Assembly (NCBI RefSeq): GCF_988242995.1
Contig: NZ_OZ547043.1
Direction: 5' to 3' (one strand)
DNA: 64,000 bases
Part shown: one piece after another, positions 3,056 to 38,973 of the stretch
Layout: each line of letters starts with the position of its first letter
Numbering within the stretch: the first letter of the stretch is position 1
Translations under genes and position numbers: made by a program
The notes under the pieces: generated by a model
The model's database searches: none
Told to the model about the DNA's origin: nothing
Seen by the model: the letters and a program-made list of their open reading frames with translations, nothing else

Positions 3056-3093
3056 GCGGGGAAATAAACGGCCCATTCATGAGGAATGGGCCG
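3056..3093 (-). terminator. Intrinsic terminator downstream of rnb
   Basis: Perfect stem CGGCCCATT/AATGGGCCG (3069-3077 / 3085-3093) followed on the minus strand by a U-rich run, just 3' of the rnb stop. Confidence 0.5.
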
Positions 3094-3103
3094 TGAAAGG
3101 AGA

Positions 3104-5038
3104 TTACGCGACCGGGCGCGCAATAATGCTGCGGGTTTCCATGCGGACTTCGGCAATGGTGACGTCAATAACGTCAGTCACTTTATAAGCCGTTTCACCT
3201 TTAATTTGTACAGTGCCGTTTTCCTGGCTGCAAACCAGTTCATCGCGCACAGCGTGTAAGAAAGGTGCCGGAATAAAGGCAATAGCGCCGTTATCAACCA
3301 AACGCACACGCATGCCGCCACGGCTGATATCGACAATTTCCGCCGCGAAACGGGTGTCAGTCCCGGCTTTGTCTTTCAGGAAGCGTGCGTATAACCAGTC
3401 GCCAACATCACGTTCTGCCATTCGGTTGAGACGGCGACGCTCGGCCATTTGGACAGTGATTTCATCCTGCGGACGCGTCGCAGTTTCGCCTTTGATAACC
3501 GCTTTCAGCAGACGGTGGTTGATCATGTCGCCATATTTACGGATCGGCGAAGTCCAGGTGGCGTATGCCTCCAGACCGAGGCCAAAGTGAGGACCGGGTT
3601 CAGTGCTAATTTCAGCAAATGACTGGAAGCGACGAATGCGGCTGTCGAGGAAACCAGTTGGTTGCGCATCCAGTTCACGACGCAGTTTGCAGAAACCGTC
3701 CAGCGTGAGCACTTCTTCGGCATCGACATGCAGACCGTGGGTTTTCAGCAACGCTGCCAGCGCGTCGGCATTCGCCGGATCAAAGCCCATATGCACGTTA
3801 TAGATGCCAAAACCGAGCTTATCGCGCAGTACGCGGGCCGCACAAATGTTAGCGGCAATCATCGCTTCTTCGACGATACGATTGGCAATGCGACGAGGCT
3901 CGGCGACGATATCCAGCACTTCACCTTTTTCACCGAGAATAAAGCGGTAATCCGGGCGATCTTTAAATACCAGTGCGTGGTTATGACGCCACTCGCCGCG
4001 GCGTTGGCAAATTTGCGCTAACAAACGGACTTGTTCGGCAATTGCTTCACTTTCAGGCTGCCAGTCACCGGTATTTTCCAGCCAGTCAGAGACCTGGTCA
4101 TACACCAGCTTCGCTTTGGATTCGATGGTGGCGGCAAAGAATTCGATATTATCTTCAATGGTGCCATCAGCGGAGAGCGTCATGCGGCATGCCAGTACCG
4201 GGCGGACTTCATTGGCGCGCAGTGAGCAGAGATCGTCAGAAAGCTCGCGAGGCAGCATAGGGATGTTGAAGCCAGGCAGATAGTTGGTGAATGCGCGAAT
4301 TTTCGCGGCTTTGTCCAGCTTGCTGCCTTCAGCAATCCACGCGGTTGGATCGGCAATCGCCACAATCAGCTGAAGTTTGTCATCCGGCAACGCCTTAGCG
4401 AAAAGGGCGTCATCCATATCTTCTGTGCTGGCACTGTCGATGGTGACAAAATCCAGCGCGGTCAGATCTTCACGAACCAGACCTTCATCGAGCATTTCGG
4501 TAGCGACGCCGTCTGGTGCTTCTTTTTCCAGATTATGGCGCGCAAGGGTAACCCACCACGGTACAAAGTGGTCGTCACCAAAAGTGATGTATTGTGTTAG
4601 TTCAGCATAGAAAGAACGATCGCCTTTCAGCGGATGACGGCGCATTTCGGCAACCGCCCAGTCGCCTTCTTTAAACTCGTGGTTCAGGCCACGGGCTGCG
4701 CGGCAAGGAATGGCGTCTTTTAAGAGTGGATGATCAGGAACGATGGCCAGACGGTCATGTTTGCCCTGAACTTTACCCACGAAACGAGTCAGAAACGGTT
4801 CAACCAGTTCTTCTGGCTCTGCGGATTCACGTTCTTTTTCACTGTGGATAACCGCGATAATTCGGTCGCCATGCATGACTTTTTTCATCTGCGGCGGCGG
4901 AATGAAATAACTTTTTTGCGCGTCGACTTCCAGGAAGCCAAAGCCTTTTTCTGTGGCTTTTACCACCCCTTCAGCGCGTGGCGTCTGGGAATGCAGTTGC
5001 TGTTTAAGCTGCGCTAGCAGCGGGTTGTCCTGAAACAT
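3104..5038 (-). CDS. rnb: Exoribonuclease II (RNase II), 644 aa
   Basis: 644-aa ORF starting [48 protein letters not shown]; matches RNase II length and neighbourhood. Confidence 0.92.
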
Positions 5039-6376: not shown

Positions 6377-7165
6377 TTATTTCAGTTCGAGTTCGTTCAT
6401 TGCAGCGATGCTGAAACCGCCGTCAACGTGGACCACTTCACCGGAGATACCGGCAGAGAGATCGGAGCACAGGAATGCCGCAGAGTTACCCACATCTTCA
6501 ATGGTAACGGTACGGCGAATCGGGGTAACGGCTTCGCAATGAGCCAGCATTTTGCGGAAGTCTTTGATACCGGAAGCCGCCAGAGTACGGATCGGACCCG
6601 CAGAGATGGCGTTAACACGCACACCTTCCGGACCCATCGCGTTCGCCATATAGCGCACGTTTGCTTCCAGAGACGCTTTTGCCAGACCCATAACGTTGTA
6701 GTTCGGGATAGCGCGCTCAGCGCCAAGGTAGGAAAGGGTCAGCAGGGCAGAACCCGGATTCAGCATGGAGCGGCAAGCTTTTGCCATTGCAACGAAGCTG
6801 TAGGAGCTGATGTCGTGGGCAATTTTGAAGCCTTCACGGGTAACGGCATTAACATAGTCACCATCCAGCTGATCGCCAGGTGCAAAACCAATAGAGTGTA
6901 CGAAACCGTCAAATTTCGGCCAAACTTTCGCCAGTTCAGCGAACATGGTGTCGATGCTGGTATCTTCTGCAACATCGCACTGCAGAACGATGTCAGAACC
7001 CAATTGAGCGGCAAATTCTTCTACGCGGCCTTTCAGTTTGTCGTTCTGGTAGGTGAATGCCAGTTCAGCTCCTTCGCGGTGCATCGCCTGAGCGATACCG
7101 TAGGCGATGGACAGTTTGCTGGCAACACCGGTTACCAGAATGCGCTTACCGGAAAGAAAACCCAT
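6377..7165 (-). CDS. fabI: Enoyl-ACP reductase FabI, 262 aa
   Basis: 262-aa [59 protein letters not shown]... recognised as FabI. Confidence 0.95.
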
Positions 7166-7599
7166 AGCTTTAATCCTTATTGTTGATGCTTGTTGTGCCT
7201 GAAAATCAGGCGATTCGTCGTTTTAGTAAACAGTACGAACAGATAAACGGTTATTATAATCAACCTGGCTGTGGGTGGCTATAGTTGCGCTTTCTGTAGC
7301 GGAGAGAAGCTGCGGTACAGAGCATTTTGCGTTATCTACTCTTGACGCCTGCAAGGGGTAGGTTGGGGAAATATCTTATAGAATCTGACTCTGAAACTAT
7401 TCGTATTAGCTCCGATAAGTTTGATGATGAAAACAGAACTGGTGACAACAAGTAGCAGCCTTTCTGATGAATTGACCCCAACTTAATATTGTCAACTATC
7501 TTCACAGAATCTCCACAATCTCTTCATTATCAGAATATGCACCATGAATAAGATAAAAATACTTTCCATTACTTTGGAGAAACGTATAATCAGCAAAAA

Positions 7600-7617
7600 T
7601 GAGAACGATCATTCTCA
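7600..7617 (+). promoter_or_regulatory. Candidate promoter/operator of the TetR gene (TATAAT at 7585-7590, then imperfect palindrome TGAGAA-cgatca-TTCTCA)
   Basis: Seen in sequence: consensus -10 hexamer followed by an 18-bp imperfect inverted repeat 26 bp upstream of the ATG at 7643. Confidence 0.35.
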
Positions 7618-7642
7618 CCAAGTGATAGGCCAGGAGACAGAA

Positions 7643-8209
7643 ATGACCAGCAAACTGGAGATACGCCACAAACAGCGTCAGGATGAAATCATTAACGCCG
7701 CCCGTCGGTGTTTTCGTCGCTGCGGGTTTCATGCCGCCAGTATGTCGCAAATTGCCAGCGAAGCTCAGCTTAGCGTGGGTCAGATATATCGTTACTTCGC
7801 CAACAAAGACGCCATTATTGAAGAGATGGTTCGCCGTATCATCGACTTTCGTATTGCCCAAATGGACATTGACGCGCGTACCGATCACTTCCCGGAAGTC
7901 CTTGCCTTGCGTAAATCCTTAAATGAGGACGACGACGCGCTGATGCTGGAAGTGGCTGCAGAAGCCACACGCAATCCGCGGGTTATGGCAATGCTTGAAG
8001 AAGCTGACGCCAGAATGTTCGCTAACGGTTGTGCACATATGAAAAGAATGCATCCCCATCTTAGCGACGAGCACATTCGTTGCTGCGTTGAAGTGTTTGC
8101 TACCATGATGGAAGGTACGGTTTATCGTCGTTTAACACCGCAAAAAAGCGATCCACAACATCTGCAGGAAATATATCAGGATATTGTTAGTATGTTGATA
8201 AATAAATAA
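7643..8209 (+). CDS. TetR/AcrR-family transcriptional regulator (~188 aa)
   Basis: N-terminal TetR HTH (EIINAARRCFRRCGFHAASMSQIASEAQLSVGQIYRYFANKDAI); start chosen at ATG 7643 with GGAG Shine-Dalgarno 6 nt upstream rather than the unsupported ATG at 7544. Confidence 0.8.
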   Translation: MTSKLEIRHKQRQDEIINAARRCFRRCGFHAASMSQIASEAQLSVGQIYRYFANKDAIIEEMVRRIIDFRIAQMDIDARTDHFPEVLALRKSLNEDDDALMLEVAAEATRNPRVMAMLEEADARMFANGCAHMKRMHPHLSDEHIRCCVEVFATMMEGTVYRRLTPQKSDPQHLQEIYQDIVSMLINK

Positions 8210-8229
8210 GAACAGAATTAACCAATAGC

Positions 8230-8253
8230 GGGGGATATTAATCCCCCTTATTT
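8230..8253 (+). terminator. Intrinsic terminator after the TetR gene
   Basis: Stem GGGGGAT/ATCCCCC with ATTA loop followed by TTATTT. Confidence 0.6.
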
Positions 8254-8309
8254 CATTGCGAAATTCATTTCGCGATGCGGGTTCGTTATAACTGAATATC
8301 CCTGACATA

Positions 8310-8331
8310 TCCTCATTAATTTTAATGAGGA
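8310..8331 (+). promoter_or_regulatory. 22-bp perfect palindrome TCCTCATTAA-tt-TTAATGAGGA, candidate operator upstream of the efflux operon
   Basis: 10-bp perfect arms, 27 bp upstream of the MFP start codon and downstream of the TetR terminator. Confidence 0.4.
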
Positions 8332-8357
8332 GGGTATTTCTCACCCTGGAGAAAATA

Positions 8358-9479
8358 ATGAAGTATATAGCAACATCTGTAGTGGCAATGCTGCTCTTAT
8401 CTGGTTGTGATAATACGCAAAGTAACAATTCATCCCCGTCAGAAACAGAAGTCGGCGTTGTTACAGTCAAATCTCAACCGGTCTCGGTAGTCAGTGAATT
8501 AACCGGACGCACCAGTGCTGCGCTCAGTGCCGAAGTACGTCCGCAGGTTGGGGGAATTATCCAGAAACGCTTATTTAAGGAAGGTGATCTGGTCAAGGCT
8601 GGACAGCCGCTCTACCAGATTGATGCGGCCAGTTATCAGGCTGCATGGAATGAAGCTCGGGCAGCATTACAACAAGCACAGGCACTGGTAAAAGCCGATT
8701 GCCAGAAAGCGCAGCGTTATGCCCGACTGGTGAAAGAGAACGGTGTTTCACAACAGGATGCTGATGATGCTCAGTCTACCTGTGCACAAGATAAAGCCAG
8801 TGTAGAGGCGAAAAAAGCCGCACTGGAAACTGCGCGCATTAATCTTGACTGGACCACGGTAACCGCACCGATTTCAGGGCGCATTGGCATTTCGTCGGTA
8901 ACCCCTGGCGCACTGGTGACCGCGTCGCAAGATACAGCGTTAACGACTATTCGTGGTCTGGATACAATGTATGTCGACCTCACTCGCTCCAGTGTCGATT
9001 TATTACGTCTGCGTAAACAGTCACTGGCGACCAACAGTGACACCATGAGCGTCTCACTTATTCTGGAAGATGGCACAACCTACAGCGAAAAAGGGCGTCT
9101 GGAACTCACCGAAGTCGCTGTAGATGAGTCTACCGGTTCGGTGACATTACGGGCGATTTTCCCCAATCCACAACAGCAGTTATTACCGGGAATGTTTGTT
9201 CGCGCTCGTGTCGATGAAGGCGTGATGGAAGACGCTATTCTCGCGCCGCAACAGGGCGTCACGCGCGATGCTAAAGGCAATGCAACTGCGCTGGTGGTCA
9301 ATAAAGACAATAAAGTAGAGCAGCGAACGCTCGAAACGGGAGAAACGTATGGTGATAAATGGCTGGTGCTGAACGGCCTGCACAACGGCGACCGACTGAT
9401 TGTTGAAGGTTCTGCCAAAGTCACTTCAGGGCAGACCGTCAAGGCTGTTGAAGTTCAGGCTAATGGAGGCAACGCCTGA
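8358..9479 (+). CDS. RND efflux periplasmic adaptor (membrane fusion lipoprotein), ~373 aa
   Basis: Start ATG 8358 with GGAG Shine-Dalgarno; lipoprotein signal MKYIATSVVAMLLLSGC; HlyD/AcrA-like sequence; stop overlaps next start (TGATG). Confidence 0.8.
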   Translation: MKYIATSVVAMLLLSGCDNTQSNNSSPSETEVGVVTVKSQPVSVVSELTGRTSAALSAEVRPQVGGIIQKRLFKEGDLVKAGQPLYQIDAASYQAAWNEARAALQQAQALVKADCQKAQRYARLVKENGVSQQDADDAQSTCAQDKASVEAKKAALETARINLDWTTVTAPISGRIGISSVTPGALVTASQDTALTTIRGLDTMYVDLTRSSVDLLRLRKQSLATNSDTMSVSLILEDGTTYSEKGRLELTEVAVDESTGSVTLRAIFPNPQQQLLPGMFVRARVDEGVMEDAILAPQQGVTRDAKGNATALVVNKDNKVEQRTLETGETYGDKWLVLNGLHNGDRLIVEGSAKVTSGQTVKAVEVQANGGNA

Positions 9480-12400
9480 TGTTTTCGCGCTTTTTTGTTC
9501 GCCGCCCGGTCTTTGCCTGGGTTATCGCCATTTTGATTATGTTGGCGGGGATTCTGGCTATTCGCACATTGCCCGTCGCGCAATATCCTGACGTTGCGCC
9601 ACCGACCATTAAAATTTCAGCCACTTATACTGGTGCTTCTGCCGAAACGCTGGAGAACAGCGTGACTCAGGTTATCGAGCAACAACTCACTGGGCTTGAT
9701 AATTTACTCTATTTCAGCTCAACCAGCAGCTCTGATGGTTCGGTCAGTATTAATGTGACCTTTGAACAAGGTACCGATCCAGATACTGCACAGGTTCAGG
9801 TGCAGAATAAAATTCAGCAGGCGGAGTCGCGCCTACCCAGCGAAGTGCAGCAAACGGGTGTTACGGTGGAGAAATCACAAAGCAACTTTTTGCTGATTGC
9901 TGCCGTGTATGACACCACTGACAAAGCCTCCAGTTCGGATATCGCCGACTGGTTGGTTAGTAACGTTCAGGACCCACTTGCGCGTGTTGAAGGTGTGGGG
10001 AGTCTGCAAGTCTTTGGCGCGGAATACGCTATGCGCATCTGGCTTGACCCGGCCAAACTGGCGTCTTACTCGCTAATGCCTTCAGACGTGCAAAGTGCTA
10101 TTGAAGCGCAAAACGTGCAGGTTACTGCCGGGAAAATAGGGGCATTGCCTTCACCGAATACTCAGCAACTGACCGCAACGGTACGTGCGCAGTCTCGCTT
10201 GCAGACGGTGGATCAGTTCAAAAATATTATCGTGAAAAGCCAGTCAGACGGCGCAGTTGTTCGTATAAAAGATGTGGCTCGCGTTGAGATGGGCAGTGAA
10301 GATTATACCGCTATCGGCAAACTTAACGGTCACCCGTCTGCCGGGGTTGCTGTAATGCTTTCGCCCGGTGCGAATGCGCTGAATACGGCGACGCTGGTCA
10401 AGGATAAGATTGCCGAATTCCAGCGGAACATGCCGCAGGGATACGACATCGCATACCCGAAAGACAGCACTGAATTTATTAAAATCTCTGTAGAGGACGT
10501 AATTCAGACGCTGTTTGAAGCCATCGTATTGGTGGTTTGCGTGATGTATTTATTCCTGCAAAACCTGCGTGCCACACTGATTCCGGCGTTAGCTGTCCCC
10601 GTCGTTTTGCTGGGCACATTCGGCGTTCTTGCGTTGTTTGGCTATTCGATTAATACCCTGACGTTGTTTGCAATGGTGCTGGCGATCGGCTTGCTGGTGG
10701 ACGATGCCATTGTGGTGGTGGAGAACGTCGAACGCATTATGCGTGACGAAGGGTTGCCCGCGCGTGAAGCCACGGAAAAATCAATGGGCGAGATTTCTGG
10801 CGCACTGGTTGCCATTGCGCTGGTGTTGTCAGCCGTATTCCTGCCTATGGCCTTCTTTGGGGGATCTACGGGGGTAATTTATCGTCAGTTTTCGATAACC
10901 ATTATCTCCGCAATGCTGCTTTCCGTGGTAGTGGCATTGACCTTGACTCCCGCCCTGTGCGGTTCCGTCCTCCAGCATGTTCCGCCACATAAAAAAGGCT
11001 TTTTCGGCGCATTTAACCGCTTTTACCGCCGTACTGAAGATAAATATCAGCGAGGCGTAATTTATGTCCTGCGCCGTGCAGCCCGAACGATGGGGCTTTA
11101 TGTCGTGCTGGGTGGTGGAATGGCCCTGATGATGTGGAAACTGCCGGGCAGTTTCTTACCCACTGAAGACCAGGGCGAAATCATGGTGCAGTACACGCTG
11201 CCGGCTGGGGCGACCGCTGCCCGTACAGCAGAAGTGAATCGCCAGATTGTTGACTGGTTCCTGATTAACGAGAAAGCAAATACCGATGTCATCTTTACCG
11301 TTGATGGTTTCAGTTTTAGCGGTAGCGGACAGAACACCGGGATGGCGTTTGTTTCGTTGAAAAACTGGTCTCAACGTAAAGGGGCAGAAAACACCGCCCA
11401 GGCTATCGCCCTACGGGCAACCAAAGAGCTGGGCACAATTCGTGATGCCACGGTATTTGCGATGACGCCGCCAGCCGTTGATGGGCTGGGGCAAAGCAAT
11501 GGTTTTACGTTTGAATTGTTAGCTAACGGTGGAACCGATCGCGAAACACTACTGCAAATGCGTAATCAGTTGATAGAAAAAGCGAATCAAAGTCCGGAGT
11601 TACATTCTGTGCGTGCCAATGATTTGCCACAAATGCCGCAATTGCAGGTAGATATTGATAGTAATAAAGCGGTGTCATTAGGGTTGAGTTTGAATGATGT
11701 CACCGACACCCTGTCCAGTGCGTGGGGCGGTACTTATGTGAATGACTTTATTGACCGTGGTCGTGTGAAAAAAGTCTACATTCAGGGCGACAGTGAATTT
11801 CGTTCCGCGCCGTCAGACTTAGGTAAATGGTTTGTGCGCGGTAGCGATAACGCCATGACACCATTCTCTGCTTTTGCGACCACCCGCTGGCTGTATGGAC
11901 CGGAAAGACTGGTGCGCTACAACGGCTCGGCAGCCTATGAAATTCAGGGCGAAAACGCGACTGGCTTTAGTTCCGGCGATGCAATGACAAAAATGGAGGA
12001 ACTGGCAAACAGTCTTCCTGCGGGAACAACATGGGCCTGGAGTGGTTTGTCATTGCAGGAGAAACTGGCCAGCGGTCAGGCATTAAGTCTGTATGCAGTT
12101 TCTATTTTGGTGGTTTTCCTCTGCCTTGCAGCACTGTACGAAAGCTGGTCAGTCCCGTTCTCGGTCATTCTGGTGATCCCTCTGGGGCTTCTTGGCGCGG
12201 CGCTGGCGGCCTGGATGCGTGATTTAAACAACGACGTTTACTTCCAGGTAGCGCTATTAACTACTATCGGCTTGTCGTCGAAAAACGCCATTCTGATTGT
12301 GGAATTTGCTGAAGCGGCGGTTGCAGAGGGCTATTCCTTGAGTCGTGCGGCATTACGCGCGGCGCAGACTCGTTTACGCCCAATCATCATGACCTCGCTG

Positions 12401-12586
12401 GCGTTTATTGCGGGGGTAATGCCGCTGGCGATAGCAACCGGCGCAGGGGCGAACAGCCGCATCGCCATTGGTACGGGCATTATTGGCGGCACGCTGACCG
12501 CTACATTACTGGCCATTTTCTTCGTTCCTCTGTTTTTTGTACTGGTGAAACGTTTGTTTGCCGGTAAACCGCGCCGTCAGGAGTAA
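9479..12586 (+). CDS. RND (HAE1-family, AcrB/OqxB-like) inner-membrane efflux pump, 1035 aa
   Basis: 1035-aa ORF with hallmark RND N-terminus MFSRFFVRRPVFAWVIAILIMLAGILAIRTLPVAQYPDVAPPTI and conserved VDDAIVVVENVER motif. Confidence 0.9.
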   Translation: MFSRFFVRRPVFAWVIAILIMLAGILAIRTLPVAQYPDVAPPTIKISATYTGASAETLENSVTQVIEQQLTGLDNLLYFSSTSSSDGSVSINVTFEQGTDPDTAQVQVQNKIQQAESRLPSEVQQTGVTVEKSQSNFLLIAAVYDTTDKASSSDIADWLVSNVQDPLARVEGVGSLQVFGAEYAMRIWLDPAKLASYSLMPSDVQSAIEAQNVQVTAGKIGALPSPNTQQLTATVRAQSRLQTVDQFKNIIVKSQSDGAVVRIKDVARVEMGSEDYTAIGKLNGHPSAGVAVMLSPGANALNTATLVKDKIAEFQRNMPQGYDIAYPKDSTEFIKISVEDVIQTLFEAIVLVVCVMYLFLQNLRATLIPALAVPVVLLGTFGVLALFGYSINTLTLFAMVLAIGLLVDDAIVVVENVERIMRDEGLPAREATEKSMGEISGALVAIALVLSAVFLPMAFFGGSTGVIYRQFSITIISAMLLSVVVALTLTPALCGSVLQHVPPHKKGFFGAFNRFYRRTEDKYQRGVIYVLRRAARTMGLYVVLGGGMALMMWKLPGSFLPTEDQGEIMVQYTLPAGATAARTAEVNRQIVDWFLINEKANTDVIFTVDGFSFSGSGQNTGMAFVSLKNWSQRKGAENTAQAIALRATKELGTIRDATVFAMTPPAVDGLGQSNGFTFELLANGGTDRETLLQMRNQLIEKANQSPELHSVRANDLPQMPQLQVDIDSNKAVSLGLSLNDVTDTLSSAWGGTYVNDFIDRGRVKKVYIQGDSEFRSAPSDLGKWFVRGSDNAMTPFSAFATTRWLYGPERLVRYNGSAAYEIQGENATGFSSGDAMTKMEELANSLPAGTTWAWSGLSLQEKLASGQALSLYAVSILVVFLCLAALYESWSVPFSVILVIPLGLLGAALAAWMRDLNNDVYFQVALLTTIGLSSKNAILIVEFAEAAVAEGYSLSRAALRAAQTRLRPIIMTSLAFIAGVMPLAIATGAGANSRIAIGTGIIGGTLTATLLAIFFVPLFFVLVKRLFAGKPRRQE

Positions 12587-12589
12587 GTT

Positions 12590-13963
12590 ATGTTGCGTCG
12601 TTCTCTTATTTTTCTGGTGTTGTTGAGTGCGGGATGTGTCTCGCTCGATCCTCACTACAGTACGCCTGAATCCCCAATCCCGGCGACCTTGCCGGGAGCA
12701 CAGGGCCAGGGGAAGGCAATCAGCCATGACTGGCAGCAGGTGATCCACGATCCCCGATTGCAGCAGGTAGTAACCATTGCACTGAACAGTAACCGCGATG
12801 TGCAAAAAGCGATTGCTGATATTGACTCAGCACGGGCGCTCTATGGGCAAACTAATGCGTCGTTATTTCCGACGGTGAATGCGGCCTTAAGTTCGACTCG
12901 CAGTCGTTCGCTGGCGAATGGTACGGGAACAACTGCCGAGGCTGACGGCACGGTGTCCAGTTATACGTTAGATCTGTTTGGTCGTAATCAGAGTTTATCT
13001 CGGGCGGCGCGGGAAACCTGGCTTGCCAGTGAATTTACAGCCCAGAACACTCGTTTAACGCTGATTGCTGAAATCAGCACCGCCTGGCTGACACTGGCGG
13101 CTGATAACAGCAACCTGGCCCTGGCAAAAGAAACGATGGCCAGTGCAGAAAACTCATTGAAAATTATCCAGCGCCAGCAACAGGTTGGCACGGCGGCAGC
13201 GACAGATGTCAGTGAGGCGATGAGTGTTTATCAGCAAGCGCGCGCCAGCGTTGCCAGCTATCAGACACAAGTGATGCAGGATAAAAATGCGCTGAACTTA
13301 CTGGCAGGTACAACGCTTGCGGAAAATCTGCTACCGGGAACACTGGAAAGCCTGCCGGAACAAATGATAAGTCTGGTTCCTGCGGGAGTATCATCTGATG
13401 TTCTGCTGCGTCGCCCGGATATCCAGGAAGCGGAACATAATTTGAAGAGCGCCAATGCAGATATTGGCGCGGCGCGGGCTAACTTTTTCCCGACGATTTC
13501 GCTGACTGCCAGTGCCGGTGTTGGCAGTGACGCATTGTCGTCGTTGTTCAGCCACGGAATGCAGATCTGGTCATTTGCGCCATCGGTCACATTACCGCTG
13601 TTCACTGGCGGAAGTAATCTGGCGCAGCTTCGTTACGCAGAAGCACAAAAGCGTGGGCTCATTGCCACCTATGAAAAAACCGTTCAGACCGCATTTAAAG
13701 ATGTCGCTAACGGACTGGCGCGGCGGACCACGCTTGAAGAGCAACTGGATGCACAACGCCAGTATGTTAAAGCTGAGCAACAAACGGTCGATGTTGGCTT
13801 GCGTCGCTATCAGGCGGGTGTTGGTGATTACCTGACCGTGTTGACGGCGCAGCGCAGCTTGTGGATCGCACAGCAGGAGCTGCTGGCACTGCAACTGACT
13901 GATTTTACAAACCGAATCACGCTCTGGCAGTCGCTGGGCGGCGGCATGTCATCACTCAAGTAA
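12590..13963 (+). CDS. Outer-membrane efflux lipoprotein (NodT/OprM family), 457 aa
   Basis: Lipobox LLSAGC in signal peptide; starts 4 nt after the RND stop; TolC/OprM-like length and repeats. Confidence 0.85.
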   Translation: MLRRSLIFLVLLSAGCVSLDPHYSTPESPIPATLPGAQGQGKAISHDWQQVIHDPRLQQVVTIALNSNRDVQKAIADIDSARALYGQTNASLFPTVNAALSSTRSRSLANGTGTTAEADGTVSSYTLDLFGRNQSLSRAARETWLASEFTAQNTRLTLIAEISTAWLTLAADNSNLALAKETMASAENSLKIIQRQQQVGTAAATDVSEAMSVYQQARASVASYQTQVMQDKNALNLLAGTTLAENLLPGTLESLPEQMISLVPAGVSSDVLLRRPDIQEAEHNLKSANADIGAARANFFPTISLTASAGVGSDALSSLFSHGMQIWSFAPSVTLPLFTGGSNLAQLRYAEAQKRGLIATYEKTVQTAFKDVANGLARRTTLEEQLDAQRQYVKAEQQTVDVGLRRYQAGVGDYLTVLTAQRSLWIAQQELLALQLTDFTNRITLWQSLGGGMSSLK

Positions 13964-13971
13964 GGAATAAT

Positions 13972-15135
13972 ATGGCTAGAGTCTCTCTTTCATGGGCATT
14001 GATTCTTGGTCTTTTAGCCGGTATAGGCCCGATGTGTACCGATCTTTATTTGCCGGCTTTGCCGGAGATGTCTGAGCAACTGGCGGCAACCACGACCATA
14101 ACGCAATTAACCCTGACCGCATCACTGATCGGTCTTGGCGTCGGACAACTGTTATTTGGCCCTCTGAGCGACAAAATAGGGCGTAAACGTCCGTTAATCT
14201 TGTCGTTGCTATTGTTTATTGTTTCTTCCATTTTGTGCGCGACAACGAACAATATTTACTGGCTGGTGGTCTGGCGTTTTATTCAAGGGATCGCGGGGGC
14301 GGGTGGTTCGGTGCTCTCTCGTTCTATTGCTCGTGACAAATATCAGGGAGTAACGTTGACCCAGTTTTTTGCGCTGTTAATGACGGTGAATGGCCTGGCA
14401 CCGGTGTTGTCGCCAGTGCTGGGCGGGTACATTGTTAGCACTTTTGACTGGCGCACTTTATTCTGGGTAATGGCTGAAATTAGCACCGTATTGTTGCTGG
14501 GCTGCGTGTTATTTATTAATGAGACCTTGCCAGAAAATAAAAGGGGCTCATCATTGCTATTAACCGGACGAAGCGTGGTGCAGAACCGCCGTTTTATGCG
14601 CTTTTGCCTGATTCAAAGTTTTATGCTGGCAGGCTTGTTTGCATATATCGGCTCTTCGTCGTTCGTGTTGCAGAAGGAATTTGGCTTTAGTCCAATGCAA
14701 TTTAGCCTGGTGTTTGGCCTTAACGGCATCGGACTTATCATTGCTTCATGGATCTTTTCGCGCCTGGCTCGACGGATTAACGCGATGACATTGTTGCGAG
14801 GTGGCCTGATAGCGGCAATTTTGTGTGCATTGCTCACGGTCTTATGCGCATGGATACAATTGCCCATTCCGGCACTGGTGGCATTATTTTTCACCATCGC
14901 ATTTTGTAGCGGCATCGGCACTGTTGGCGGGGCAGAGGCTATGAGTGCAGTAGGGACGCAGGAATCTGGAACGGCGTCTGCGTTGATGGGGATGAGCATG
15001 TTTGTCTTCGGCGGTATAGCCGCGCCATTGTCGGGAATTGGCGGAGAAACACTGTTAAAAATGAGTCTGGCAATTACGGTGTGTTATACGCTGGCATTGC
15101 TGGTTGCTCTCACCAGAATCGACAATCAAAAGTAA
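13972..15135 (+). CDS. MFS (DHA1, Bcr/CflA-like) transporter, 387 aa
   Basis: 387-aa hydrophobic ORF with MFS motif GPLSDKIGRKRP; tightly coupled to the upstream OMP gene. Confidence 0.8.
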   Translation: MARVSLSWALILGLLAGIGPMCTDLYLPALPEMSEQLAATTTITQLTLTASLIGLGVGQLLFGPLSDKIGRKRPLILSLLLFIVSSILCATTNNIYWLVVWRFIQGIAGAGGSVLSRSIARDKYQGVTLTQFFALLMTVNGLAPVLSPVLGGYIVSTFDWRTLFWVMAEISTVLLLGCVLFINETLPENKRGSSLLLTGRSVVQNRRFMRFCLIQSFMLAGLFAYIGSSSFVLQKEFGFSPMQFSLVFGLNGIGLIIASWIFSRLARRINAMTLLRGGLIAAILCALLTVLCAWIQLPIPALVALFFTIAFCSGIGTVGGAEAMSAVGTQESGTASALMGMSMFVFGGIAAPLSGIGGETLLKMSLAITVCYTLALLVALTRIDNQK

Positions 15136-30655: not shown

Positions 30656-31563
<908 letters not shown>

Positions 31564-38940: not shown

Positions 38941-38973
38941 ATATGCCTGATGGTGCAACACCATCAGGCATAT
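38941..38973. terminator. Bidirectional terminator hairpin between tyrR and tpx
   Basis: ATATGCCTGATGGTG-caa-CACCATCAGGCATAT perfect 15-bp arms between convergent stops. Confidence 0.6.

Follow-up and report, generated by a model that had tools for sequence, protein, structure and literature searches.

One EefR operator and a predicted RNA stem-loop probably account for the two palindromes of the Escherichia coli eefRABCD efflux locus

In the TetR/tetO, AcrR/acrAB and QacR/IR1 systems, a homodimeric helix-turn-helix repressor binds a palindrome over an efflux promoter or start site, and the arrangement is autoregulatory. In the papBA and malEFG spacers and in the 5′ hairpin of ompA, mRNA stem-loops or internal attenuators set differential operon expression. 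The eefRABCD locus resembles the repressor systems in that the EefR palindrome lies at the promoter and start of an efflux operon and is autoregulated. It departs from these classical pairs in that eefR heads the transcript of the genes it controls instead of being divergently transcribed, with one operator serving five genes, and in that an intrinsic terminator separates eefR from the pump genes. With the papBA and malEFG spacers it shares a hairpin in a non-coding polycistronic spacer, conserved in structure rather than sequence, and a terminator-like hairpin after the first cistron. Unlike papBA, malEFG and ompA, the eef spacer matches no Rfam family and is specific to the eefR–eefA junction. 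The operator itself has been described in E. coli ATCC 35218 (PMC12482432, Virulence 2025), where the identical 18-bp sequence occupies the same fabI–eefR position in the same eefRABCD operon; the published primers match our sequence exactly, and nothing of substance differs between the two operators.

We analyzed a 64,000-nucleotide stretch of the E. coli chromosome (NCBI RefSeq assembly GCF_988242995.1, contig NZ_OZ547043.1; hereafter the window), in which the accessory eefRABCD operon sits between fabI and sapF. The eef system is present in 2037 of 5426 complete E. coli genomes (~38%), in phylogroups associated with infection. EefABC/EefD is a cryptic multidrug efflux system that is turned on by EefR mutations, and its substrates include ribosome-targeting drugs. 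EefR carries a TetR_N helix-turn-helix domain (PF00440, residues 16–62, 57.5 bits against a Pfam cutoff of 24). The genes and the elements upstream of eefR are as follows.

7563–7590, + strand: eefR (operon) promoter, −35 TTTCCA (7563–7568), 16-nt spacer and −10 TATAAT (7585–7590), from a consensus scan
7600–7617, no strand assigned: palindrome 1, the EefR operator TGAGAA-CGATCA-TTCTCA (TGAGAACGATCATTCTCA), from sequence, conservation and published binding
7643–8209, + strand: eefR, TetR-family repressor of 188 aa, start codon ATG 7643, same start in the RefSeq annotation
8358–9479, + strand: eefA, periplasmic adaptor, NCBIfam RND adaptor match, ATG 8358 in agreement with the RefSeq start
9479–12586, + strand: eefB, RND permease, NCBIfam match and RefSeq annotation
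12590–13963, + strand: eefC, outer-membrane factor, NCBIfam match and RefSeq annotation
13972–15135, + strand: eefD, Bcr/CflA-type MFS, NCBIfam match and RefSeq annotation

The initial annotation had proposed one palindromic operator ahead of the TetR gene and another ahead of the adaptor gene, and direct reading of the sequence found both at the coordinates first given. Palindrome 1 indeed lies just 3′ of TATAAT and before the TetR gene: it begins 9 nt after the −10 hexamer, and the eefR ATG follows at 7643. The promoter scan scored TTTCCA-16-TATAAT at 10 of 12 consensus matches and predicted a transcription start site. As an 18-mer, palindrome 1 is self-complementary in 8 of 9 pairs, with C7 and A12 unpaired. 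The window contains 9 such 18-mers (one unpaired position or none), and shuffled sequence gives 8.7 ± 3.2; the 477-nt fabI–eefR spacer would contain one or more with a probability of 0.063. Judged by the shuffle counts, the symmetry by itself is unremarkable, and the weight falls on conservation and published binding.

Conservation of this site extends well beyond E. coli. TGAGAA-N6-TTCTCA, matched at 10 or more of its 12 outer positions, was present in 81 of the 81 related loci examined (Enterobacteriaceae, Erwiniaceae, Serratia, Brenneria and Lonsdalea), and nearly all of them have a −10-like hexamer placed 0–11 nt 5′ of the operator or sharing 1 nt with it. The consensus is TGAGAA-YGATCR-TTCTCA in Enterobacteriaceae, and Serratia has a plain 18-bp operator, TGAGAA-TGAACG-TTCRCA. 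Erwinia, Lonsdalea and Brenneria have a “long” operator of 22 bp, for which a change in half-site spacing was considered; a pair of 18-bp sites that overlap with a 4-bp offset is the better reading. Published gel shifts show specific EefR binding to a 129-bp probe, with cold-probe competition, and loss of the shift upon deletion or even single-base mutation of the palindrome, while a gfp reporter is repressed by EefR (PMC12482432). The primers for that probe map to positions 7514–7642 of the window. Palindrome 1 is the EefR operator, already experimentally established (PMC12482432), and the initial proposal of an autoregulatory site for the local TetR protein is upheld by these shifts and mutants together with the 81 loci. 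Across this TetR–pump operon family, the site is universally conserved and forms the single point of control.

All five genes appear to depend on this one promoter. In the published work, 316 bp upstream of eefR drive gfp expression, RT-PCR is positive across all eefRABCD junctions, and a ΔeefR strain shows eefA, eefB, eefC and eefD raised 83-, 28-, 43- and 27-fold, respectively (PMC12482432). The RT-PCR results and the 83-fold rise in eefA place eefRABCD on one transcript from the eefR promoter. An internal sigma-70 promoter in the eefR–eefA spacer was rejected: the promoter scan of the window returned none there, and a consensus scan of 33 orthologues found no sigma-70-like site with 8 or more of 12 matches between the terminator after eefR (H1, below) and eefA.

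The same regulator occurs in simpler units. Two-gene tetR–MFS units of Erwinia, Pantoea and Serratia encode an orthologous TetR protein (48–63% identity) with a TGAGAA-N6-TTCTCA-type operator at the promoter, followed by a Bcr/CflA-type MFS pump, the counterpart of eefD. These units have no RND genes and no spacer, and their MFS gene overlaps or abuts the TetR stop codon. By comparison with them, eefABC and the structured spacer look like an insertion into an older tetR–MFS operon.

The 148-nt eefR–eefA spacer contains, in order, terminator H1, hairpin H2 and H3, which coincides with palindrome 2. Its features, together with the eefA ribosome-binding site, are listed here.

8230–8257, + strand: H1, intrinsic terminator/attenuator, GGGGGAT-atta-ATCCCCC (8230–8247) followed by TTATTTCATT, from a terminator scan
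8254–8277, + strand: H2, conserved hairpin CATTGCGAAAT-tc-ATTTCGCGATG, predicted independently by RNAalifold
8296–8346, + strand: alternative pairings of the purine run after H3, from folding and covariation
8310–8331, + strand: palindrome 2, H3, predicted RNA stem-loop of 9 bp with an AUUU loop (TCCTCATTAATTTTAATGAGGA), also from an inverted-repeat scan
8326–8343, no strand assigned: palindrome-1-like box TGAGGA-gggtat-TTCTCA, 1 mismatch in 12 outer positions
8348–8352, + strand: eefA ribosome-binding site GGAGA, read from the sequence

Folding of the entire spacer gave −48.9 kcal/mol, with a z-score of −4.8 on the + strand versus −2.3 on the − strand. H1 is paired in 83.6% of cells, and among the orthologues both partners vary in 6 of its 7 pairs; the G+C-rich stem and the U tract are both conserved, with a T-rich tail seen in the orthologues. 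H2 is paired in 93.7–95.7% of cells and has 6 pairs with compensatory changes. Support for alternative pairings of the purine run is weak: an outer helix of GGGTAT (8332–8337) with ATATCC (8296–8301) appears in the minimum-free-energy fold, and H4, GGGT (8332–8335) with ACCC (8343–8346), is paired in 63% of cells with some both-side changes. Klebsiella sp. L040 has a 42-nt spacer that lacks H1–H3, so the hairpins are not indispensable. A scan of positions 7100–8500 against Rfam 15 (E ≤ 10) gave chance-level matches only, the best being sraA on the minus strand at 21 bits against a gathering score of 56 (E = 2.5). The words terminator, hairpin and stem-loop are absent from the published study, which does not discuss conservation in other genera (PMC12482432). 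What we add, a conserved terminator and two conserved RNA hairpins in the regulator–pump spacer, is a modest observation.

Palindrome 2 proved less symmetrical than the “perfect 22-bp palindrome” first reported, as two perfect 10-nt arms (8310–8319 and 8322–8331) flank a central TT that is not self-complementary. Its placement between the TetR terminator (hairpin 8230–8247) and the adaptor start at ATG 8358 stands. Counting perfect inverted repeats whose 10-nt arms are no more than 6 nt apart, we found 4 separate sites in the window versus 0.56 expected. Such a repeat would fall in the 148-nt spacer with a probability of 0.0025, which puts palindrome 2 beyond chance. Its arms differ between genera, where palindrome 1 stays constant. 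Per-sequence folding nevertheless predicts a hairpin at the H3 position in all 34 orthologues; compensatory and G·U changes keep its pairing, and the mean z-score against shuffles is −2.9. The hairpin spans 20–23 nt and lies 25–29 nt 5′ of the eefA AUG in the 14 orthologues with a readable distance. The + strand fold is the more stable in 26 of 34, and G·U pairs number 29 versus 12. When stems were anchored at their base, 95.4% of cells were paired versus 74 ± 3% after arm permutation, a value that comes from manual anchoring of per-sequence folds and leans towards pairing, with shuffle controls that ignore phylogeny. In these anchored stems, 6 of 7 positions show two or more Watson–Crick pair types, and G·U outnumbers A·C by 18 to 3. 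Pairing falls to 52.7% in a MAFFT alignment and 54% in a covariance-model realignment as the helix register shifts by a column from genus to genus; in an alignment of the bare hairpins, terminal gaps were placed. Sequence drift with pairing kept is characteristic of an RNA helix and not of a site bound by protein. This pattern indicates that palindrome 2 is the DNA image of a conserved + strand RNA stem-loop, not a protein operator. Palindrome 2 was rejected as an intrinsic terminator: no U tract follows the stem in the orthologues, where AGGACGTCG or CAGGCATCG stands instead, and in E. coli the terminator scan flags it weakly, with 3 G–C pairs and the tail GGGTATTTCT.

Taken as a whole, we think it likely that palindrome 1 is the single EefR operator and palindrome 2 the H3 RNA stem-loop of a polycistronic spacer. 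Palindrome 1 would cover roughly +3 to +21 of the predicted transcript, such that an EefR dimer bound there would block RNA polymerase at the only promoter and repress eefR itself along with eefA, eefB, eefC and eefD on the same transcript. H1 may stop part of the transcripts after eefR, leaving the repressor in excess over the pump. In read-through transcripts, H2 and H3 would fold the eefA leader and might set message stability, translation initiation or both, and the purine run next to the eefA ribosome-binding site could pair to either side. The spacer likely acts by attenuation and by controlling how stable the eefA message is or how well it is translated. We are more doubtful that it forms an undescribed, conserved cis-regulatory RNA that conditionally gates read-through, eefA translation or both, a proposal that seems unlikely. 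If true, the pump would have a second, post-initiation layer of control independent of EefR, and the spacer RNA might respond to, for example, a small RNA, an RNA-binding protein or a metabolite. The terminator and hairpins of the spacer may also account for the lack of a phenotype from constructs without eefA upstream sequence and for the disagreement between two laboratories over the pump substrates.

Several other explanations of palindrome 2 deserve consideration. The initial annotation took it for a TetR site controlling the pump operon, a reading favored by its position upstream of eefA and by a long inverted repeat that chance would seldom produce there. Several lines of evidence speak against such a second EefR operator with its own pump promoter, which we regard as highly improbable. 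The pump genes share a transcript with eefR and are derepressed through the eefR promoter, and the spacer of the window and of the 33 orthologues contains no promoter-like site. Palindrome 2 has no similarity to the proven operator, and its sequence is not conserved where both the operator and EefR are. A 146-bp fragment served as the non-specific competitor in the published EefR assay and did not compete at 1–2x excess (PMC12482432); it maps to 8212–8357 and contains palindrome 2. At so low an excess, weak binding to the spacer could have gone unnoticed. The initial annotation was correct in spirit to question whether one protein binds both palindromes, and palindrome 2 should receive no operator annotation. 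Binding by another DNA-binding protein, whether a second local or a global regulator, is also very unlikely. The authors of the published study do suggest that pump phenotypes require sequences upstream of eefA, with which unidentified regulators may interact (PMC12482432). In Klebsiella aerogenes, eefABC is reportedly silenced by H-NS. A protein site shared across genera should keep its sequence, however, whereas only pairing is kept at palindrome 2; the G·U wobbles that outnumber A·C there would be mismatches in duplex DNA, the signal is biased to one strand, and no promoter is present to act on.

The RNA stem-loop could also be the 5′-terminal stabilizing hairpin of a separate eefABCD transcript whose 5′ end comes from an unrecognized internal promoter or a processing site just 5′ of the hairpin. 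The fixed distance between hairpin and eefA start and the need for eefA upstream sequence in constructs (PMC12482432) are in keeping with this, and processing of the polycistronic RNA is compatible with all observations. We nonetheless consider it quite unlikely: no orthologue has a sigma-70-like site, and the dependence of eefA on EefR points to the eefR promoter for most transcription; the processing variant overlaps the reading of H3 as a polycistronic spacer hairpin rather than opposing it. Since the pump exports ribosome-targeting drugs and the ATGCGG in the 3′ arm of H2 is well conserved, the spacer might also be a ribosome-dependent leader-peptide attenuator that senses translation inhibitors through a small open reading frame at ATG 8275 (MRVRYN). 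That peptide is not conserved among the 33 orthologues. Its start codon is absent in 6 and GTG in 2 more, the frame reads Met-stop in E. albertii, length and frame vary widely, and a Shine–Dalgarno-like GGAG abuts the ATG; we rejected this scarcely probable candidate as close to refuted. The two palindromes do differ, as first stated, but the statement is incomplete: the palindrome-1-like box at 8326–8343 overlaps the right arm of palindrome 2. Base frequencies predict only ~0.0003 sites with a single outer mismatch in 148 nt, and the box might serve EefR as a weak auxiliary site ahead of eefA, either a roadblock or a partner in looping, an idea to which we attach very little probability. Other Escherichia and all other genera have GTTCACC in place of TCTCACC, the left half falls within the variable H3 arm, and the central 6 bp are unlike the conserved YGATCR. 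The one outer mismatch of the box, A5>G, corresponds by dyad symmetry to T14>C in mutant MT-1, for which no gel shift remained, and the non-competing fragment 8212–8357 carries the box (PMC12482432). The box is probably non-functional, even though the spacer haplotype that contains it predominates in E. coli (1905 of 2040 genomes at 99% identity or more).

The window comes from an E. coli chromosome, and its plus-strand genes at 7643-15135 make up the eefRABCD operon known from PMC12817139 and PMC12482432. They follow rnb, yciW and fabI (minus strand), and sapF comes last; across the 1235 bases at 7166-8400, many complete E. coli genomes match at 99.6-100% identity, and the region is present at ≥80% query coverage in 2037 of 5426 E. 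coli genomes.

Genes and spacer elements of the eef locus
7643-8209, plus strand, TetR/AcrR regulator (eefR)
8230-8247, plus strand, hairpin H1, GGGGGAT-atta-ATCCCCC then TTATTTCATT; terminator-like, directly after the eefR stop codon
8254-8277, plus strand, hairpin H2, 94-96% paired with 6 compensatory pairs
8348-8352, plus strand, eefA ribosome-binding site, GGAGA
8358-9479, plus strand, RND adaptor (eefA)
9479-12586, plus strand, RND permease (eefB)
12590-13963, plus strand, outer-membrane factor (eefC)
13972-15135, plus strand, Bcr/CflA-type MFS pump (eefD)

In published work, cDNA was amplified across every eefR-A-B-C-D junction, a ΔeefR strain showed increases of 83-fold for eefA, 28 for eefB, 43 for eefC and 27 for eefD, and the data have the pump genes transcribed from the eefR promoter (PMC12482432). 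A minus-strand TAGCCA-17-TATAAT at 7253-7281 (10/12 matches), aimed at fabI, is probably the promoter of that gene, ~300 nt from the eefR promoter and divergent to it.

The palindrome upstream of eefR (palindrome 1, TGAGAACGATCATTCTCA) lies at 7600-7617, as located by the initial annotation, which had proposed it as an autoregulatory operator. It begins 9 nt past TATAAT (7585-7590) and ends 25 nt ahead of the eefR start ATG at 7643. The 6-base arms are perfect, and the whole 18-mer is self-complementary at 8/9 pairs. Symmetry of this class is ordinary, as 18-mers with at most one unpaired position number 9 in the window vs 8.7 in shuffles, and window shuffles give a probability of 0.063 for at least one in the 477-nt spacer. 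Exactly this sequence has been named as the EefR operator: purified EefR shifts a 129-bp probe, for which cold probe competes, a palindrome-less probe gives no shift, operator point mutants, including one single-base change, abolish it, and a PeefR-gfp fusion is repressed by EefR (PMC12482432). The primers of PMC12482432 match the window exactly, with the specific probe corresponding to 7514-7642. For a phylogenetic test, 80 related loci (one genome per species) and the window itself were searched for TGAGAA-N6-TTCTCA within 200 nt ahead of the TetR gene, with at least 10 of the 12 outer positions matching. Every locus carried the site, which in nearly all of them lies 0-11 nt past a −10-like hexamer or overlaps the last hexamer base; its centre in Enterobacteriaceae is YGATCR, with all four Y/R combinations seen. 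Autoregulation through palindrome 1 is thus supported by both the published gel shifts and mutants (PMC12482432) and the presence of the site in all loci compared, which makes it the conserved control point of this TetR regulator family. In each testable respect palindrome 1 belongs with the TetR-family operators, and it is identical in sequence to the published one; as an operator it was already known and is no discovery.

At 7607-7610 the operator is centred on GATC, a Dam methylation site, which nearly every Enterobacteriaceae orthologue keeps as YGATCR; the versions in Erwinia, Serratia and Pantoea lack it. A 22-bp palindrome, TGAGAATGAACGTTCATTCTCA, stands upstream of the TetR gene in related loci L044, L047, L067, L068, L073 and L080, which come from Erwinia, Brenneria and Lonsdalea and, for L068 alone, from Serratia marcescens. 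One reading of it is a pair of 18-bp TGAGAA-N6-TTCTCA-type sites that overlap with a 4-bp offset, and two dimers may bind it in those lineages. In the remaining Serratia loci there is just one 18-bp version, TGAGAATGAACGTTCRCA.

Palindrome 2 (TCCTCATTAATTTTAATGAGGA), in the 148-nt eefR-eefA spacer, also lies where it was first annotated, at 8310-8331, but the "perfect 22-bp palindrome" is actually two perfect 10-nt arms flanking a central TT. Such repeats are rare: those with perfect 10-nt arms and a spacer of up to 6 nt occur at 4 distinct sites in the window vs 0.56 in shuffles, and the probability of at least one in the 148-nt spacer is 0.0025 (window shuffles). The window has three more perfect inverted repeats whose arms reach 10 nt or more, at 3069-3093 (just downstream of rnb), 31488-31512 and 38945-38969 (the latter two GC-containing stems); all three look like intergenic terminator hairpins.

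Four independent lines of evidence speak against the initial proposal that palindrome 2 is a TetR-family site for the pump operon, and it is not an operator. Its arms differ among orthologues that conserve the operator and the repressor.

Palindrome 2 arms in orthologues
E. coli, TCCTCATTA/TAATGAGGA
Raoultella, CCCTGCTA/TAGCAGGG
Enterobacter, CCCTGTTAA/TTAACAGGG
Kluyvera, TCCTCGC/GCGAGGA
Kosakonia, CCTGTTT/AAACGGG

The substitutions between orthologues preserve pairing. A promoter scan of the plus strand at 8210-8357 found none, and an internal promoter in the spacer was rejected because no site with at least 8/12 matches lay between the terminator and eefA in the 33 orthologous spacers scanned. 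The "non-specific" competitor primers of PMC12482432 map to 8212-8357, the entire eefR-eefA spacer including palindrome 2, and this fragment, used at 1-2x only, failed to compete for EefR (PMC12482432). Palindrome 2 does not qualify as a TetR-family operator. The competitor fragment also includes a palindrome-1-like box missed in the initial annotation, TGAGGA-N6-TTCTCA at 8326-8343, which overlaps the right arm of palindrome 2; a repeat finder gave 77% identity between 8324-8345 (AATGAGGAGGGTATTTCTCACC) and 7598-7619. The box has one mismatch to the operator in 12 outer positions and merited examination, since by our own estimate ~0.0003 such boxes are expected by chance per 148 nt. It is not conserved, as the TCTCACC of this strain is GTTCACC in other Escherichia and in every other genus; its centre is unlike the conserved YGATCR, and the fragment that contains it did not compete. 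By dyad symmetry its outer mismatch, A5>G, corresponds to MT-1 (T14>C, window 7613), a published single-base mutant in which the EefR shift is abolished (PMC12482432). We rate the box a coincidence, or a very weak site at most.

As RNA, palindrome 2 corresponds to H3, the last of three successive spacer hairpins. Individual folding of each orthologue predicted a hairpin of 20-23 nt at the homologous place in 34/34, located 25-29 nt upstream of the eefA AUG in the 14 with a readable distance, and the mean z-score vs shuffles was −2.9. Stability was greater for the plus-strand than for the minus-strand RNA in 26/34, and G·U pairs numbered 29 on the plus vs 12 on the minus strand. With stems manually anchored at the base (28 distinct sequences, 7 pairs each), 95.4% of cells were paired vs 74 ± 3% when 3' arms were permuted among species, and 0/2000 permutations attained the observed pairing. 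Six of the 7 positions in these stems have at least two Watson-Crick pair types, and G·U combinations number 18 vs 3 for A·C; the only stem changes within Escherichia (loci L002 and L005) are new G·U wobbles. Pairing is just 53-54% in MAFFT and covariance-model alignments because the helix register slips one column between genera; these alignment-based figures understate H3 pairing, which we acknowledge as a weakness of the H3 evidence. Such a pattern marks a plus-strand RNA helix and not a protein site in duplex DNA, and palindrome 2 can be placed among conserved intercistronic mRNA stem-loops, an ordinary class.

Taken whole, the eefR-eefA spacer forms a conserved structured RNA that includes a terminator. 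H1 is 83.6% paired across orthologues, with both-sided changes at 6/7 pairs, and H2, predicted by RNAalifold unaided, is the best-supported helix. The predicted folding energy of the spacer RNA is −48.9 kcal/mol (z = −4.8 for the plus strand vs −2.3 for the minus strand), and its covariance model matches this junction only, once per locus with eefA; no Rfam family matches it. Spacer identity is ≥99% in 1905 of 2040 E. coli genomes, among which we found no annotation on it. A purine run 3' of H3, GGGTAT (8332-8337), pairs back to ATATCC (8296-8301) in the minimum-free-energy fold or, alternatively, with downstream ACCC (8343-8346) adjoining the ribosome-binding site; we regard either pairing as a weak prediction. 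PMC12482432 does not use the words terminator, hairpin or stem-loop. This arrangement of terminator plus hairpins has not been previously described and is a modest lead, no surprise.

EefR at palindrome 1, just past the −10 box, silences the sole promoter of the five-gene operon, and its loss derepresses all five genes (PMC12482432). H1 would end a fraction of transcripts, leaving repressor in excess of pump and basal pump expression very low, and in read-through transcripts H2 and H3 would shape the eefA leader and affect stability or translation. A remark in PMC12482432, given there without data, that sequence upstream of eefA is essential for the phenotypes of multi-gene constructs is compatible with a leader role of H2/H3. 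A leader-peptide attenuator was tested and rejected.

Erwinia, Pantoea and Serratia carry the same operator with tetR-MFS alone, so eefABC and the structured spacer appear to have been inserted into an ancestral two-gene tetR-MFS operon that kept its operator. In L031-L081, from Erwinia, Pantoea, Serratia, Brenneria and Lonsdalea (TetR stop at ~3550-3595 in locus coordinates), and likewise in L009, L010, L012, L018, L025 and L027, the TetR gene is directly followed by a Bcr/CflA-type MFS gene, the eefD counterpart, which overlaps it or lies within ~140 nt, with no RND genes.

Many database entries annotate EefA as 384 aa, starting at an in-frame ATG (8325) within the right arm of palindrome 2; the RefSeq start at ATG 8358 (373 aa) has a ribosome-binding site and yields a normal lipoprotein signal peptide. 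In the spacer haplotype of this strain, UUCUC (8338-8342) can pair with GAGAA (8349-8353), which in the minimum-free-energy fold would occlude the eefA ribosome-binding site; other Escherichia have GUUCA there, so this pairing is lineage-specific. Escherichia sp. MOD1-EC7003 carries a 124-nt insertion between the eefR stop codon and H1 (L003:3583-3706) that resembles an ERIC/IRU repeat element, with H1-H3 intact downstream. Citrobacter sp. JGM124 (L055) has a different hairpin, and Klebsiella sp. BIGb0407 has a spacer of only 42 nt (L040:3562-3603) without H1-H3 that retains a TTCAC...CTGAGAAAAA motif ahead of the start codon. The most widely kept leader sequence is a conserved CGTTCACCCTGR-A-rich block by the ribosome-binding site.
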